64,000 nt of DNA. Source: an uncultured Candidatus Saccharibacteria bacterium. Its GTDB lineage: Bacteria; Patescibacteriota; Saccharimonadia; Saccharimonadales; UBA10212. Numbering within the stretch: the first letter of the stretch is position 1; each line of letters begins with the position of its first letter. A program made the position numbers and the translations under genes. Where the stretch lies: the NCBI GenBank assembly GCA_964460855.1, contig CAYWQH010000009.1:1351-65350 (forward strand), given 5' to 3'. Below, in pieces: positions 58,598-64,000 of this stretch. The notes beneath the pieces are model-generated. The model made no database searches. It was not told the DNA's origin and saw only the letters and a program-made list of their open reading frames with translations.

Positions 58598-58996
58598 CTA
58601 TTTCTTAGCGGCGGGTTTTTTAGCGGCTGGCTTCTTGGCGGCAGCTTTTTTTGGCGCGGCTTTTTTAGCAACCGGCTTTTTAGCCGCGGTTTTCTTAACG
58701 GGGGCGGCTTTTTTAGCGGCAGCGGTTGGTTTAACACCGTGGGCTTTGGCCTTTGCGGCCACTTGGGCTTTTTTGCGGGCAGCCTTGTTTTTATGGATAA
58801 CGTCTTTTTTAGCGGCTGTATCAATGGCGCTGATAGCTTCTTTTTCGGTCTTGGCGATGTCGGCGCTTTTGCCGGCGGCCAAAGCTTTGTTAAAAGCCTT
58901 TAAAGCCTCGCGCAAGTTGCGGCGGGTGCGGGCGTTGCGGACAGTGGCTTTGCGGGCGACTTTAACGCGCTTTTTAGCAGATTTGATAATTGGCAT
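58598..58996 (-). CDS. rpsT: 30S ribosomal protein S20 with Lys/Ala/Pro-rich C-terminal extension
   Basis: 'MPIIKSAKKRVKVARKATVRNARTRRNLREALK' followed by about 45 aa of AKKPAAKK repeats. Confidence 0.88.
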   Translation of the reverse strand: MPIIKSAKKRVKVARKATVRNARTRRNLREALKAFNKALAAGKSADIAKTEKEAISAIDTAAKKDVIHKNKAARKKAQVAAKAKAHGVKPTAAAKKAAPVKKTAAKKPVAKKAAPKKAAAKKPAAKKPAAKK

Positions 58997-59279: not shown

Positions 59280-61058
59280 ATGGATCCGACCGCCAAACAA
59301 CAAATTGTTGAGCGCCTCAAACAGGCTAATAATGTGCTGGTTACGGTTAGCAACAACCCCAGCGTCGACCAGCTTGCAGCCTGCATTGGCTTTACGCTGC
59401 TGCTCAATAAAATGAATAAGCACGGTACAGCGGTGTTTAGCGGCCAGATACCCAGCACCCTGGAATTTTTACAGCCCGATAAAACCATCGAGCAAAATAC
59501 CGACAGCCTGCGAGATTTTATAATCAGCCTCGACAAAAGCAAAGCCGACAAACTGCGCTATAAGGTCGAAGACCAGGTCGTGCGGATATTTATTACTCCT
59601 TACCGCACCAGCTTATCGGAGGCCGATTTAGTCTTTAGCCAGGGCGACTTTAACGTTGAAGTCGTTATTGGGCTTGGCGTGAAAGAACGCGACCAGCTGG
59701 ACGCGGCCATTACGGCCCACGGCCGGATACTGCACGACGCAACCGTTATATCGGTAAATTCCGGCGAAGGCCAGCCCGCCAACCTCGGTTCGCTTAACTG
59801 GCAAGACCCCCAGTCCAGTAGCCTATGCGAAATGCTGGTAAGCATGAGCGAAGCATTTGGCAGCGGCTTGATAGACAACCAGATGGCTACCGCTTTCTTA
59901 ACAGGCATTGTGGCCGAAACCGAACGCTTCAGTAACAAAAAGACCAGCCCCAAAGTTATGACCATGAGCGCCCAGCTAATGGCTGCCGGCGCTAACCAGC
60001 AATTAATTGCTAATAAACTGGCCGATCCGGTAGCCGCCGCGCCTCCGCTGTCTGGCGGAGCAGCCACTTCGCCGGGAGAAACGCTTGGCGGCCAACAGGC
60101 TAAGCCTGCCGCAGACGGCGGCCTTAACATTGCCCATAACGAAAAAGCCGAAGTGCCAAACCCCGACGCAATCCACATCGACGAACACGGCAATATGAAT
60201 AAACACGATCTCCAGAAGCAACAAGAAGAAGCTGCCCAAAAAGAAGACAACGGGCTGATTGACCCTTTGATAAACCACGATGAAAATGCTCCCGGGCGGC
60301 AGTCGCTAGACCCGGCCGGCCAACCTTCTAGGGGAGGCACGCTAAGCGCCAATACCACACCGGAAGAATACGGCGGCACCAGCGACCCGATGAGCCAGCC
60401 AACCAAAAACGGACCGATGCTCAAGCGGGATTCCGAAAAACGGCCGCCGGCCCCCGATATGCCCATTGCCGATTTAATCGAACCGCAGATTCAGCAGTCG
60501 CCGGACCCACCTCCGCCTAAGGCGGAAATGGCCGAGCCCAAAAAGGAGCCAGCCGCCGCACCCCCTCCTCCGGAAAATACGCCGCCGCCATTAGCTGTGC
60601 CAGATCCGCCTAAGGTAGAGCCTAAAGCCGAAGCTCCGGCTCCGCCGCCGCCGGCCCCCGACCACCATGCCGCCGGCACTATGCTGGTTCCGCCGGAATT
60701 AAGCGAAATCGCCAAAGAAGTAGAAGCCGCCGACGAAAAAGGCGCTTTCGACCCGCTAGCCAACCCCGAAAAGAATGAAACCGATTCGGCCCGCAGCAAA
60801 GTTAACTCGGCGATAAATTCAGTGCCATTTGACCCGGCAGGGCATCCTACTTTATCCCATGGAAGTGCCGGCTTAGACCATGGCACGGCCCATCAGATCA
60901 CACCACCTCCGGATCATGGACTGGCTGTATCTGCCGAAGCGCCGGCCCCGGCCGACAAGCCACCGGCTGATAGCCCGGCGCCCCCACCGGTACCGCCGCC
61001 TTTGCCAATAGATAATTTACCCGGCCTAAATTTGCCGCCGCCCCAACCGCCTAAATAA
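59280..61058 (+). CDS. DHH/DHHA1-like (NrnA-like, apparently degenerate) domain protein with long Pro-rich C-terminal region
   Basis: The N-terminal roughly 250 aa have NrnA-like spacing ('VLVTVSNNPSVDQLAACIG', 'FLTGIVAETERF') but lack the DHH residues. The C-terminal roughly 340 aa are P/A/E-rich. Confidence 0.4.
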   Translation: MDPTAKQQIVERLKQANNVLVTVSNNPSVDQLAACIGFTLLLNKMNKHGTAVFSGQIPSTLEFLQPDKTIEQNTDSLRDFIISLDKSKADKLRYKVEDQVVRIFITPYRTSLSEADLVFSQGDFNVEVVIGLGVKERDQLDAAITAHGRILHDATVISVNSGEGQPANLGSLNWQDPQSSSLCEMLVSMSEAFGSGLIDNQMATAFLTGIVAETERFSNKKTSPKVMTMSAQLMAAGANQQLIANKLADPVAAAPPLSGGAATSPGETLGGQQAKPAADGGLNIAHNEKAEVPNPDAIHIDEHGNMNKHDLQKQQEEAAQKEDNGLIDPLINHDENAPGRQSLDPAGQPSRGGTLSANTTPEEYGGTSDPMSQPTKNGPMLKRDSEKRPPAPDMPIADLIEPQIQQSPDPPPPKAEMAEPKKEPAAAPPPPENTPPPLAVPDPPKVEPKAEAPAPPPPAPDHHAAGTMLVPPELSEIAKEVEAADEKGAFDPLANPEKNETDSARSKVNSAINSVPFDPAGHPTLSHGSAGLDHGTAHQITPPPDHGLAVSAEAPAPADKPPADSPAPPPVPPPLPIDNLPGLNLPPPQPPK

Positions 61059-61109
61059 ATTCAAATAAATAAACCGCTCGAGTAACCAAGCGGTTAATTT
61101 ATATAGTTT

Positions 61110-62408
61110 TTACTGCTTTGGAGGCTGGTTTGGGTTTATAACGTTATTTGGCGGTTCGGGGTTGTTATTTTCGGTTCCCTGGGGCGATATAACCTGGCCG
61201 GCGCTGGGATTTTGCGGGCCGCTTAGTTGTTGCAGCGTGCCGTCCGGTTTGGCGGGCGGGGGAGTGGAGCTGGAAATGTCATGGTGGCCGGCAAATTGGT
61301 GCCTGGAACTAAGTTGGCGGAAAACCAGCCAGCCCAGTACTGCCAGCAGTAAAATTCCGGCACCGGCTGCTACCGGCACTACTGGTACGGATTTAAAGGT
61401 GCTGGAAGACTCGGGCGTGGTTGCGGCTTTAGCCGGAGCAGCGGCTGGCGGCGTAGTAAACGTAGCTTCTTTGCTGGTAGCGGCATTGCCAGCAGCGTCG
61501 GCACTTTTTACCTGGTAATAAAACATTGTTCCGGGCTGCAATAAACCCTTGCTAGTTATATCTACTTTATGCGAGGTAGCCAGCCCGTTAACCGTAATGG
61601 CTTCATATTTGCTGCTGGACAAACCAACAAGTGCCGTAGAAGTTGCCGGTTCTGAAGTTGTCCAGGTTATAGTCGCGCTGCTAGCGGTAATATTGCTGAC
61701 GTTAACTTTTGTAATAACCGGCGGTGTTTTATCCGGGGCGGGCGCAGTGGTTTTAGCCGGGGTGCTGGTTTTTTTGGTAGGCGTGGCGCTGCCGCTGGTA
61801 GAGCCAGTGCTGCCCGTACTGCCGGTGCTTCCGGTGCCGCCGGTTCCACCCGTGCCGCCCGTTCCTCCGGTTCCACCGGTACCGCCAGTTGACGGCGCGT
61901 TAATGGTGTAGCTGGCAGTGCCTTTAGTGCTTGGAATTTCGACTGCGGCGGTGTTAAGTACTTTAGAATTGCTGTCTAAGCTCAAATTTGCCGTGCCGGC
62001 AGCGCTAGCCGTAAAGGTAATAGTGGCGACCAGCTGGTTGCCGGTGATGCCGCCGGGAGTTGTAGTGCCAACAGCTACTTTTACGGTCCTAAAACCGCTG
62101 CCAGGCGTGGCGTTGTCGGAATTTTCAGCTTGCACCTGCCAGGCCGAAGCGGTCGTAGAGCTAACATAAGTTAACAGCGTAGACGGGTAAACGACATTGG
62201 CTTGCACGGCATTGGCGTTATCGCCGGTAATATCGGCGTGCACCTGGACCGAAAAATTATTGCCTTTTGTTATCGTCGAGCTGGAGGGCGTAAACGTCAG
62301 GGTGGCCGTGCCGGCGGCCGTGGCCCTCAATGACGGCAAAGTTAACGCAGCAACTAATCCGGCCGCCAATACCAGAACAATTACTTTTCTTAAATGCTTT
62401 TTAATCAT
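61110..62408 (-). CDS. membrane-anchored cohesin domain / FN3 domain protein
   Basis: A signal peptide, a cohesin-like about 140-aa beta domain ('LTFTPSSSTITKGNNFSVQV...ATITFTASAAGTANLSL'), a (GGT)n/(GST)n linker, an FN3-like domain ('PPVITKVNVSNITASSATITWTTSEPATS') and a C-terminal TM helix. Confidence 0.65.
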   Translation of the reverse strand: MIKKHLRKVIVLVLAAGLVAALTLPSLRATAAGTATLTFTPSSSTITKGNNFSVQVHADITGDNANAVQANVVYPSTLLTYVSSTTASAWQVQAENSDNATPGSGFRTVKVAVGTTTPGGITGNQLVATITFTASAAGTANLSLDSNSKVLNTAAVEIPSTKGTASYTINAPSTGGTGGTGGTGGTGGTGGTGSTGSTGSTGSTSGSATPTKKTSTPAKTTAPAPDKTPPVITKVNVSNITASSATITWTTSEPATSTALVGLSSSKYEAITVNGLATSHKVDITSKGLLQPGTMFYYQVKSADAAGNAATSKEATFTTPPAAAPAKAATTPESSSTFKSVPVVPVAAGAGILLLAVLGWLVFRQLSSRHQFAGHHDISSSTPPPAKPDGTLQQLSGPQNPSAGQVISPQGTENNNPEPPNNVINPNQPPKQ

Positions 62409-62413
62409 ATCTG

Positions 62414-64000
62414 TTAAGTACCATAATGGCTTAATAAAATGCTTAAGTCAAATATGTCAACGGTGTTGTCATTATTGATATCAGCGGTAGCGTCCGACGT
62501 GCCATATTTAGACAATAATAGTGACAAGTCAAATATATCTACATGGCCGCTGTTATTCAAGTCGCCGGGTATGGGGCTGCCGGCCGGAACAAATTCTTTG
62601 GCCCCGGCATCAGGGGCGGAGCCGCAATATGATGTTAATGCACCGCTGCAGCCGGAGGTGAGCGTGCCGGTTGCCGGGTTGGCCACGCCAAAATCTATGG
62701 CCGGGCTGCTGGAAGTCAAGGTAGCGTCCGGGCTGGTGGCCACAATGGAAGTAAGCAATGGGTTAGTTATTGACGAGCCGCTTTCACCGGGGAAGGAAGC
62801 CAAGGCTACACTGGAGCCGCGAAACGAAAACGTCGTGCCACCACTGGTATCAAAGTACATGTTATTGCGGCCAGTGTAGCTGCCTGTGGCACTGCCGCTA
62901 AAAACTTGGAGGGCGGTGTTTGTGCCCATATTGCCGACTATAATGTTATTTTCAAAGTTTACATTTGTCGTTAAACCGGCGGCATCCGGGCCGCGGATAT
63001 CGACACCCTGTTTAATTGCCCCACTAACAGTGTTGGTGATAAAGGTGTTATTGCTGAAATTGAAATTCATAGTGTGGCCGTTAACATTCAATGGATTGCC
63101 GCTGGGGTTATTGGATGTGAAGTCGATGTACATTCCGGCCGTGGAAACGTCATAAACCAAGTTATGATCGACATTTAATGTCTGGCTGGCCGCCCGGGTG
63201 TAGTCGAACCAGCCTACTCCGGCAGAGCAGGCGTGCAAAACGTTATTCTGGATCAAACCGCCTTCGCGGGGAGAAGTACAGCTGCCGCCGGTTATATCGT
63301 ATATCGTGGAATTCTTAATCGTAATTTGCGGGCCTTTGGCGTAAATACCGTGCTTGCCAACGCTAATAGTGGCGTCTATGCCGCAATGGTGCACGGTAAC
63401 GTTATCGTAAGTAGAAAATCCGGCTTCGTCGATGATGCAGCTGTCGCCGTTATTACTCATATCATCGTTCTGATATAGCCAGCCGGTAGAGCCATGGTGG
63501 GCCATTTCGATGCTCTGGCTGCCGGTTGTCAGGCCGGTAATCGTCGTGTTTTTAACCGTCGTATTCGTATCGCCGGTACCAGAAGCCGAAGTAATAATGC
63601 CGGTGCCATTGTTGTGGATGTAAAGGTTATCGAAAGTCACATGGTCGCTACCCACCATGTAGACGCCATCGCCGCTGGTCCAGTTGGCCAGTTCCAGGTT
63701 ACTAAACGTTACGTAACTATTGCTAAAAGCCACCTGCAGCCCGGCGAAACCGCTGCCGCCGCCGGCAAATATTGGCCGGTTGCTGCCGGTACAGCTGCCG
63801 TACTGGGTAACGGTAAGCGGCGAAGTGGAGTTGCCGCTATTGCGCAAAGTCAGCATTTCGTTCCAAGTTGAGCCGCACTTAAAGCTGATGGTGTCGCCAG
63901 GCTGGAAAATGCTTTGGGCGTTAACCTTAGCCAGGGTTTTCCATGGCGTAGACGAACTGGTGCCATTGTTAGAATCACTGCCGGCAGCCGAATCTACGAA
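62414..64000 (-). CDS. right-handed beta-helix (pectate-lyase-fold) protein with C-terminal dockerin; 5' end outside window
   Basis: The frame stays open to the window edge upstream of the first Met. Parallel beta-helix repeats ('NNTFITN', 'NNIIVGN'). Dockerin duplicate 'DLNNSGHVDIFDLSLLL...DINNDNTVDIFDLSILL'. Confidence 0.7.
   Translation of the reverse strand, partial: FVDSAAGSDSNNGTSSSTPWKTLAKVNAQSIFQPGDTISFKCGSTWNEMLTLRNSGNSTSPLTVTQYGSCTGSNRPIFAGGGSGFAGLQVAFSNSYVTFSNLELANWTSGDGVYMVGSDHVTFDNLYIHNNGTGIITSASGTGDTNTTVKNTTITGLTTGSQSIEMAHHGSTGWLYQNDDMSNNGDSCIIDEAGFSTYDNVTVHHCGIDATISVGKHGIYAKGPQITIKNSTIYDITGGSCTSPREGGLIQNNVLHACSAGVGWFDYTRAASQTLNVDHNLVYDVSTAGMYIDFTSNNPSGNPLNVNGHTMNFNFSNNTFITNTVSGAIKQGVDIRGPDAAGLTTNVNFENNIIVGNMGTNTALQVFSGSATGSYTGRNNMYFDTSGGTTFSFRGSSVALASFPGESGSSITNPLLTSIVATSPDATLTSSSPAIDFGVANPATGTLTSGCSGALTSYCGSAPDAGAKEFVPAGSPIPGDLNNSGHVDIFDLSLLLSKYGTSDATADINNDNTVDIFDLSILLSHYGT

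Follow-up and report, generated by a model that had tools for sequence, protein, structure and literature searches.

The window, as we call the whole 64-kb stretch of DNA analyzed here, carries at one end two minus-strand genes, A and B, separated by 5 nt (Table 1). An earlier note on this DNA had given this arrangement, and it was confirmed by reading the TAA of gene A, the spacer cagat, and the ATG of gene B directly from the sequence. A pattern scan detected no terminator-like hairpin in the spacer, the nearest matches falling within both coding regions, and one downstream of gene B; terminator-like matches were overall no commoner than in shuffled sequences, and it is the position of this hairpin alone that is suggestive. 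Given the short gap, its freedom from hairpins, and the hairpin after gene B, the best reading is that genes A and B form a two-gene operon. The identical gene pair was present in three independent Logan assemblies. The GroEL encoded in the window is 81–86% identical to GroELs of Candidatus Saccharimonadales, Saccharibacteria, and Patescibacteria, which bears out the reduced genome that had been suspected, and on this basis we assign the source bacterium to Saccharimonadales (Patescibacteria/CPR). Saccharibacteria and other Patescibacteria have very small genomes and live attached to host bacteria.

The window edge truncates gene A, and the earlier note had called for recovery of the missing 5ʹ end. 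This was achieved with Logan contigs L001–L003, which supplied the full-length product (P0003, 597 aa) together with upstream DNA. In L002, an ORF of 432 aa, the length of gene B, was called downstream of P0003. The N-terminus absent from the window comprises a basic stretch and then a hydrophobic signal or anchor, WIFLVVPLMLVSSIILVRFMAGA; with so long a basic N-terminus, the protein might be membrane-anchored instead of released.

Table 1. Genes, domains, and other features of the cohesin-dockerin locus, in window coordinates
Feature	Coordinates	Strand	Basis or remark
Gene A	62414..>64000	(-)	Frame open up to window edge (position 64000), 5ʹ end cut off
Right-handed parallel beta-helix (gene A)	62693..64000	(-)	Fragment residues 1 to ~436; GH136-like N-terminal cap
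Dockerin (gene A), two F-hand-like segments, DLNNSGHVDIFDLSLLLSKYGT and DINNDNTVDIFDLSILLSHYGT, linker SDATA	62417..62569	(-)	Pfam PF00404
Spacer cagat, 5 nt, gene A TAA to gene B ATG	62409..62413	(-)	Read from sequence
Gene B, membrane-anchored cohesin protein, 432 aa	61110..62408	(-)	ORF list
Signal peptide (gene B residues 1–31)	62316..62408	(-)	Inferred by reading sequence: basic n-region, hydrophobic core, ATA|A
Cohesin domain (gene B residues 33–173)	61890..62312	(-)	Pfam, family profile, AF2, Foldseek
G/T/S linker (gene B residues 174–207)	61788..61889	(-)	Translation; imperfect 9-nt tandem repeat
FN3-like beta-sandwich (gene B residues ~234–319)	61452..61709	(-)	Pfam
TM helix VPVVPVAAGAGILLLAVLGWLVF (gene B residues ~341–363)	61320..61388	(-)	Hydropathy scan
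P/N/Q-rich tail, 69 residues (gene B)	61113..61319	(-)	Translation
Terminator-like hairpin, 10-bp stem then T-rich tail	61072..61095	(-)	Pattern scan; 15 nt past gene B stop

Reading of the gene B sequence bore out the signal peptide, the G/T/S linker, and the C-terminal TM anchor that had been described for it. The FN3-like domain was likewise upheld, as PF16656 (Pur_ac_phosph_N, an FN3-like fold) cleared the cut-off of 30 at 32.9 bits; fn3, the generic model, matched over its full length, but its 21–23 bits fell short of the required 25. Tandem Repeats Finder located the linker repeat at 61803–61886, and its sequence was identical in three assemblies. From the R/H residues that follow the TM helix, the positive-inside rule predicts a cytoplasmic tail. 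A sequence scan of gene B detected no LPXTG motif of the kind that marks a sortase anchor.

When the entire gene B product was searched against Pfam and the PDB sequences, the matches were linker-driven (GS/GT linkers in engineered chains) and included no cohesin; the cohesin came to light only once the domain was scanned by itself and a family profile was built. The claim of a cohesin-like domain fell short in one respect, in that the domain scanned alone matched PF00963 (Cohesin) at 21.5 bits (E 2.8e-4, profile positions 9–123 of 139), under the Pfam curated cut-off of 24.1 bits, and stood on family profile, fold, and structural matches. Searches for homologues yielded 2 matches by word index and 3558 by exhaustive representative search. 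Cohesin was matched at E ≤ 0.01 by 49 of 59 homologues (best 6.7e-13), and the family profile matched the solved cohesins 1g1k and 2vn5 (E 3e-5). AF2 modeled the domain as all-beta with a pLDDT of 96.9 and a pTM of 0.89. In a Foldseek search of the PDB with this model, ranks 1–39 were all cohesins, covering types I, II, and III as well as non-cellulosomal examples (E 1.6e-8 to 3.6e-5, TM 0.54–0.78), several of them solved in complex with dockerins; non-cohesin beta-sandwiches (CLIPPER, YcnI) appeared further down. The most conserved family motif, VNAVQAN, aligned with strand 3 of clostridial cohesins, a strand that carries dockerin-contacting residues in the C. thermocellum complex. As modeled, the domain can be securely assigned the nine-stranded flattened beta-sandwich (jelly-roll) fold of cohesins. 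P0001 and P0002, which at 36% identity are the nearest homologues of the cohesin, carry an LPETG sortase signal in place of the TM helix, and neither has an adjoining dockerin gene.

The C-terminal dockerin of gene A consists of two segments of 22 residues each, identical at 16 of 22 positions. F-hand calcium ligands are Asp or Asn at loop positions 1, 3, 5, 9, and 12; these positions are occupied by D, N, S, D, and D in segment 1 and by D, N, D, D, and D in segment 2. PF00404, the type I-like dockerin model, scored 24.4 bits on fragment residues 478–522 (cut-off 22.9, profile positions 1–52 of 57) and 24.1 bits on full-length P0003, so that the Pfam check proposed for the dockerin was passed and, with its tandem segments, the description of a textbook duplicated dockerin holds. 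AF2 gave this region, for which a two-helix F-hand fold is expected, an unreliable model with a pLDDT of 30–46 and no helices, on an alignment that is shallow there. This dockerin and the gene B cohesin are the only ones in the window; other cohesins or dockerins may lie elsewhere in the genome.

We then turned to the rest of gene A, for which a beta-helix had been proposed, and both sequence and structure agreed with that proposal. Gene A is similar in sequence to beta-helix enzymes of family GH136 with solved structures (E 2e-11; PDB matches 7v6m, 5gqc, and 6kqs). Its AF2 model, of only moderate confidence and with a pLDDT of about 75–90 across the beta-helix part, had GH136 structures as its best fold matches, with 5gqc, 7v6m, 7v6i, and 6kqs/6kqt at Foldseek ranks 1–6 (E 6e-11 to 7e-8, TM 0.38–0.57) and Pel9A, RG lyase, and PL6 after them; the best PDB matches were all right-handed beta-helix carbohydrate-active enzymes. 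Gene A and the GH136 enzymes (LnbX, TnX, BsaX, and ErLnb136) have an N-terminal cap in common (E 4e-22 with the subfamily profile), but identity is only 14–19% and the central catalytic turns cannot be aligned. Profile similarity is confined to the cap, and the GH136 family model was not reached, the NCBIfam LnbX equivalog, whose cut-off is 2500 bits, scoring 44.5 over residues 1–83 only. The catalytic Asp pair of ErLnb136 is D568 (acid/base) and D575 (nucleophile), and the turns that carry it gave no significant alignment with gene A; since the N-terminal cap alone aligns, an attempt to place the GH136 catalytic aspartates on gene A did not succeed. Within the gene A subfamily (alignment A7 and its numbering), the invariant acidic residues, which could not be mapped onto that pair, are D195, D200, D244, E255, D275, D293, and D302, and the conserved motifs are NxGDSCIID, HHCG, HGIYAKG, REGGLIxNN, and GWFDYTRAA. 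The closest beta-helix homologues, P0004–P0006, lack a dockerin. The beta-helix is nearest in fold to GH136 lacto-N-biosidases, while membership of that family is not demonstrable.

Next, we examined whether the order of the two genes recurs. Using the cohesin alone, with no dockerin in the query, we retrieved 58 metagenome loci; the scan was seeded by the tighter alignment A4, as A3 was too diverse to serve as a seed. Of 62 non-redundant cohesin genes, 30 had a dockerin whose end lay no more than 400 nt upstream in the same orientation, where ~2.2 would be expected by chance (P ~3e-27). The gap between dockerin and cohesin gene had a median of 144 nt and was 107 nt for the window pair, and 47 of 52 upstream proteins passed Pfam Dockerin_1 at E ≤ 1e-4. 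Like gene B, 31 of 48 complete cohesin-only proteins carried a TM helix after the cohesin, and signal peptide, cohesin, spacer, and C-terminal TM helix was the commonest build of the last gene in a cluster (again 31/48). Some loci contained chains of Coh-X-Doc genes closing with a TM-anchored cohesin gene that resembles gene B. Cargo across the related loci consisted mostly of Ig-like or FN3 modules, peptidases, propellers, and beta-helices. Only a few of the metagenome loci share housekeeping genes of ~50% identity with the window. The window pair is one case of a larger family of colinear operons in which a dockerin gene is followed by a cohesin gene, and this recurrence, across loci fished by their cohesin, is what is new here.

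Taking these data together, we consider it likely that the two-gene Saccharimonadales operon makes a minimal non-cellulosomal cohesin-dockerin display unit. The earlier note had offered a minimal surface-display pair in hedged terms, and two comparative results back that idea: roughly half of the related loci place a gene ending in a dockerin directly upstream of a cohesin gene, and the build of gene B is the one most often seen for the last gene of such clusters. The gene B product would be exported, lose its signal peptide, and be retained in the cytoplasmic membrane by its C-terminal helix, with the flexible G/T/S linker and the FN3-like spacer keeping the single cohesin clear of the cell surface. 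Exported through its own Sec signal, the gene A product would plug its C-terminal dockerin into the gene B cohesin in a calcium-dependent manner, which would tether a beta-helix protein of carbohydrate-active type to the cell surface. Because the two dockerin segments are symmetric, binding in either of two orientations is possible. The data establish the domains with their order, the adjacency of the two genes, the taxonomy, and the recurring order of dockerin then cohesin with TM-anchored terminal cohesins; we infer the binding of the gene A product to the gene B product, the calcium dependence of docking, and the surface topology. The cargo presumably acts on a glycan, of a host cell envelope or of the environment, and not on cellulose, and the pair may play a role in host attachment.

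The pairing itself could be read differently: genes A and B may simply be co-expressed, with the true partner of the dockerin elsewhere, be it another cohesin of the genome or a ligand on the host cell, and with the gene B cohesin taking other dockerin proteins, so that adjacency would reflect co-regulation rather than a cognate pair. The family dockerins are very similar across loci (motif [IV]FDLSILLS), which suggests low specificity, and Saccharibacteria contigs hold several dockerin proteins (L006). In the cultivated saccharibacterium Southlakia epibionticum, a dockerin protein, SEML1_0315, is essential (PMC10633639), which is also a precedent for the display unit; we looked for a cohesin gene beside it and found none. 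Dockerin and downstream-cohesin scores were correlated across loci (Spearman 0.61; distance matrices, r 0.70), but the dockerin correlated about equally well with the cohesin of the same protein. As this control is about as strong, the correlation is not specific evidence of pairing and may reflect shared ancestry and not co-evolution. Against a partner elsewhere, the immediate same-strand order of dockerin then cohesin is far above chance, and the 64-kb window has one of each module. Moreover, within single loci that encode two dockerin types (L016 and L030), divergent dockerins precede divergent cohesins and canonical dockerins precede canonical cohesins; in L049, too, a divergent dockerin precedes a divergent cohesin. 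We therefore regard a partner elsewhere as unlikely.

Rather less probable still is that the cohesin-like domain is an Ig-like stalk or adhesin for a glycan or host surface that does no protein-protein docking, which would leave the dockerin as only a calcium-binding stabilizing or carbohydrate-associated tail. The sub-threshold Pfam score and the non-cohesin beta-sandwiches lower in the Foldseek list fit such a domain, and Peer et al. reportedly described in 2009 many non-cellulosomal cohesin-like and dockerin-like modules without known partner. However, true cohesins take all of the first 39 places among the structural matches, several of them in dockerin-bound structures, the VNAVQAN motif falls on strand 3 of clostridial cohesins, and the systematic pairing with dockerin genes is hard to explain absent an interaction. 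Finally, that gene B is an LnbY-type chaperone for a GH136-like enzyme, like the gene beside lnbX that is needed for activity in Bifidobacterium longum, is highly improbable and was rejected on fold. In its favor, GH136 enzymes depend on a partner protein from the neighboring gene (PMC7335108), and the gene A beta-helix is closest to them in sequence and fold. But LnbY-type domains consist of 8 bundled alpha-helices (PMC7335108), whereas gene B is all-beta and shows no similarity to 6kqs, and the likeness of gene A to GH136 stops at the N-terminal cap. No alpha-helical partner of this type was seen in gene B. Two ORFs lie upstream in L001, and the one compared with 6kqs also showed no similarity.

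The display unit could also be the smallest form of something larger, and we put forward tentatively, as a possibility we rate well below the display unit itself, that gene order is assembly order. Cargo with a dockerin would come first, then adaptors with a signal peptide, cohesin, X, and dockerin, and then a TM- or sortase-anchored cohesin, each dockerin fitting into the next cohesin, to give ultra-small Saccharibacteria-like epibionts a fibril that grips and digests the host envelope. If so, cells would bear a membrane-rooted chain or fibril of Ig-like modules, peptidases, and glycan-active beta-helices, and the window pair would represent, at its simplest, an assembly system that is widespread and so far undescribed.

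Comparison with known systems shows that the gene pair is not a cellulosome. Neither a cellulase nor a cellulose-binding module was found in the 64-kb window, nor a primary scaffoldin bearing multiple cohesins; the single cohesin of gene B comes without a CBM match, and gene A, the sole dockerin protein of the window, has no match to a cellulase family. This accords with the suggestion in the earlier note of a purpose other than cellulose degradation. The closest parallel in gene arrangement is ClcC/ClcD (Clole_2599/Clole_2598) of Cellulosilyticum lentocellum, where adjacent genes for a single cohesin and a single dockerin yield products that form a heterodimer, so that the principle works in a highly reduced system (PMC13487519). 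ClcC/ClcD serves cellulase activity in a Firmicute, whereas the window pair would bear beta-helix cargo in a member of Saccharimonadales, and its cohesin protein, unlike that of ClcC/ClcD, has an FN3-like spacer and is anchored by a C-terminal TM helix. The gene B cohesin finds some of its best structural matches (TM 0.76–0.78) in the cohesin-FN3 portion of Clostridium perfringens GH84C NagJ (2w1n/2jh2; dockerin partner 2ozn), which has the same order of cohesin then FN3. Those modules join glycan-degrading enzymes that attack host glycans and not cellulose; the C. perfringens cohesin is, however, part of a large secreted enzyme, whereas gene B would be a small membrane-anchored scaffold, and identity is 18–19%. 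Anchoring scaffoldins offer a third likeness, in that a cell-bound single-cohesin protein takes a dockerin partner and the genes are clustered in assembly order. The cohesins of C. thermocellum OlpA/OlpC (3ul4, 4dh2) are among the gene B fold matches, but OlpA/OlpC are anchored by SLH domains and Ruminococcus flavefaciens ScaE by an LPXTG sortase signal, where gene B has a TM helix and a predicted cytoplasmic tail.

Apart from type IV pili, little is known of the means by which Saccharibacteria and other Patescibacteria attach to their hosts and feed. The gene pair is a concrete candidate for the mounting of surface enzymes and adhesins on their cells, being compact and recurrent, with membrane-spanning anchors and non-cellulolytic cargo, and would extend the cellulosome principle to a lineage and a purpose on which our literature search found no dedicated paper. 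Small, divergent cohesin-dockerin pairs of this kind could also serve as orthogonal protein connectors.

Gene A, which encodes a beta-helix protein ending in a dockerin, and gene B, which encodes a membrane-anchored cohesin protein, adjoin on the minus strand. The 5′ end of gene A, missing from the window, was retrieved from Logan assemblies; the complete product, P0003, is 597 aa long and identical in three independent assemblies, all of which also hold gene B. The repeat coding for the gene B linker is base-for-base the same across the three. As the same pair and the same linker repeat recur in independent assemblies, the pair is real and not an assembly artefact. A pattern scan placed a terminator-like hairpin after the gene B stop codon. 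The window GroEL is 81–86% identical to GroELs source-named Candidatus Saccharimonadales, Candidatus Saccharibacteria, or Patescibacteria group, so the premise of a reduced genome holds, and other window content is ordinary housekeeping (ValRS, PolA, DnaG, ArgRS, holA, and a P-type ATPase). The 592-aa ORF convergent with gene B has no Pfam match; its first ~250 residues look structured, and its C-terminal half is very long, Pro/Ala/Glu-rich, and of low complexity. Upstream of gene A, outside the window, are two small ORFs without Pfam matches, the larger with a faint likeness to resuscitation-promoting factor RpfE (E 0.095).

Coordinates of the gene pair, its parts, and neighboring ORFs
Feature	Position	Strand	Description
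Gene A frame	62414–64000	−	Open up to the window edge; stop TAA
Gene B ORF	61110–62408	−	432 codons; ATG five bases (cagat) past the gene A TAA
Gene B G/T/S linker	residues 174–207; repeat at window 61803–61886		Imperfect 9-nt tandem repeat
Gene B hydrophobic helix	residues ~341–363		
Gene B tail			69 residues, P/N/Q-rich
592-aa ORF	59280–61058	+	Convergent with gene B
Ribosomal protein S20-like ORF	58598–58996	−	Long Ala/Lys/Pro-rich C-terminal extension (AAKKPAAKK repeats)
Two small ORFs	L001 (Logan contig with the pair) 1095–2502	opposite to gene A	228 and 151 aa

P0003 starts with a long basic stretch, followed by a hydrophobic segment ending in AGA immediately ahead of the beta-helix; in the homologous P0004 and P0005, this place is taken by an ordinary signal peptide. 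No Pfam family scored above threshold in a scan of the gene A body. By sequence, the body matches solved GH136 lacto-N-biosidases (7v6m, E 2e-11; E 4e-22 for a four-sequence subfamily profile against GH136), with the similarity confined to the cap at the N-terminus (~85 residues) and a weak match toward the C-terminus. The AlphaFold model, built from a 13-sequence alignment, has a mean pLDDT of 70 (roughly 75–90 over most of the helix) and is made up of short beta-strands throughout, and its best PDB matches were GH136 enzymes, then pectate lyase Pel9A, rhamnogalacturonan lyase, PL6 lyases, and GH87. On these grounds, the gene A body is a carbohydrate-active-type, right-handed parallel beta-helix, in agreement with the beta-helix that the earlier note had read in the upstream gene. 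In the subfamily alignment (A7; P0003–P0006; window 62693–64000), the motifs NxGDSCIID, HHCG, HGIYAKG, REGGLIxNN, and GWFDYTRAA are invariant, as are six cysteines and the acidic residues D195, D200, D275, D293, and D302. These cysteines, with a SYCGSAPDxGAxE motif just ahead of the dockerin or C-terminus, suggest that the four are disulfide-stabilised extracellular proteins. In the closest relatives of the gene A beta-helix, the dockerin is absent or FN3 modules take its place. The final 50 residues of gene A are the duplicated dockerin expected from the first reading, scoring 24.4 bits against PF00404 (cut-off 22.9); its two 22-residue segments are identical at 16 of 22 positions, with Asp/Asn at the calcium-ligand positions. 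The dockerin part of the model has a pLDDT below 50.

A scan of the whole gene B protein gave an FN3 match below threshold and PDB matches to engineered GS/GT linkers. Residues 33–173, scanned alone, reached 21.5 bits against Pfam Cohesin (E 2.8e-4; cut-off 24.1). An exhaustive search with this domain returned 3558 relatives, many with two to four tandem copies; 49 of 59 sampled relatives matched Pfam Cohesin (best 6.7e-13), and a profile of relatives matched the solved cohesins 1g1k and 2vn5 (E 3e-5). The domain was modelled very confidently (pLDDT 96.9), and its best 39 PDB fold matches were all cohesins (TM up to 0.78), including the Clostridium perfringens GH84C cohesin-FN3 unit and an Archaeoglobus non-cellulosomal cohesin, bearing out the cohesin-like domain proposed for the downstream gene. 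The Gly/Thr/Ser linker, FN3-like domain (Pur_ac_phosph_N, 32.9 bits; cut-off 30), and C-terminal TM anchor were likewise found, and gene B has no LPXTG motif. Copies of the linker repeat match at about 74–84% and could differ in length among strains, the three assemblies being identical there. The closest homologues of the cohesin, P0001 (L004 10001–10801) and P0002 (L005 2686–3486), share 36% identity with it. Their C-terminal part runs from a P/T-rich linker through LPETG and a hydrophobic segment to a basic tail, and is a sortase signal where gene B has a TM anchor with a predicted cytoplasmic tail. No dockerin gene adjoins either homologue on these contigs.

The 64-kb window holds one dockerin and one cohesin only. 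A metagenome scan that used the cohesin alone (pattern VNAVQAN[LV]), and was hence blind to dockerins, returned 58 loci, and HMMs of both modules were run on every ORF. The dominant pattern was a same-strand dockerin whose end lies 74–300 nt ahead of where a cohesin domain begins. Among 62 cohesin genes counted after removal of redundancy, each preceded by ≥700 nt of sequence, 30 had a dockerin end ≤400 nt upstream, against ~2.2 expected from the dockerin density of the same loci (binomial P ~3e-27). The median gap was 144 nt across loci and is 107 nt in the window; 47 of 52 dockerin proteins matched Pfam Dockerin_1 at E ≤ 1e-4. Several loci carry D-C-D-C-D-C-type chains (L016 4636–12124, to which L017 is identical; also L014, L026, L036, and L047), consisting of cargo-dockerin genes, then tandem signal peptide-cohesin-X-dockerin genes, and a cohesin-only gene last. 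Gene order in L016-type loci looks as if it encoded the order in which a protein chain is assembled. As in gene B, a TM helix follows the cohesin in 31 of 48 complete cohesin-only proteins (LPXTG in 2 of 48). Gene B is thus typical of the genes that close such operons, and gene A is typical of their cargo genes.

Neighboring modules also matched by type. L016 has two canonical dockerins (IFDLSILLS) ahead of canonical cohesins (VNAVQAN) and two divergent dockerins (NSIDYS) ahead of divergent cohesins (TVGTDL); L030 has one pair of each type, and L049 a divergent dockerin ahead of a divergent cohesin. Across 29 pairs, dockerin and downstream-cohesin scores were correlated (Spearman 0.61), and comparison of the two distance matrices gave r 0.70 (permutation P below 2e-4). 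These correlations are compatible with cognate pairing but are no proof of it, because dockerins correlate about as well with the cohesin in the same protein. Less probably, the partner of either module is encoded elsewhere in the genome, or the modules have a role other than docking. In GH136 biology, an adjacent gene is required for activity (PMC7335108); gene B as an LnbY-type chaperone was ruled out, as LnbY-type domains consist of eight bundled helices (PMC7335108) and gene B is all-beta.

The earlier observation of the gene pair is confirmed, and its interpretation as a minimal surface-display system, with putative docking, is supported. Gene B would be a type I membrane protein whose flexible stalk carries a single cohesin. 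The gene A product would be secreted and dock on this cohesin via its calcium-binding dockerin, placing a putative glycan-active beta-helix at the cell surface. VNAVQAN, the most conserved motif of the gene B cohesin family, aligned to strand 3 of clostridial cohesins; in the C. thermocellum complex, this strand presumably carries dockerin-contacting residues. Sister-locus cargo is mostly Ig-like/FN3 modules, S8 and M11 peptidases, propellers, and beta-helices, rather than cellulases, and for this reason a role in attaching to or attacking the envelope of another cell would fit better than plant-fibre digestion.

Non-cellulosomal cohesin-dockerin pairs are known from each of the three domains of life. 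The nearest functional precedents for gene A and gene B are the C. perfringens toxin and glycosidase complexes (PDB 2w1n, 2ozn) and an adjacent single-cohesin/single-dockerin pair of Cellulosilyticum lentocellum that forms a heterodimer (PMC13487519). Our literature search turned up no study of such operons from Saccharibacteria or CPR, and one relevant mention, an essential dockerin protein of Southlakia epibionticum (PMC10633639), whose gene has no cohesin neighbor. New relative to known systems are the divergent cohesin subfamily, mostly escaping the Pfam cut-off, anchoring by a TM helix, the non-cellulolytic cargo, and the colinear dockerin-then-cohesin operon logic. In Candidatus Saccharibacteria bacterium CPR2 (QWHN01000006.1; L006 4604–7377), two adjoining secreted proteins, next to a 1526-aa repeat-rich protein, have the module order opposite to gene A: an N-terminal dockerin right after the signal/anchor, followed in one by Big_7 and a beta-helix-like body and in the other by a GH16 domain.
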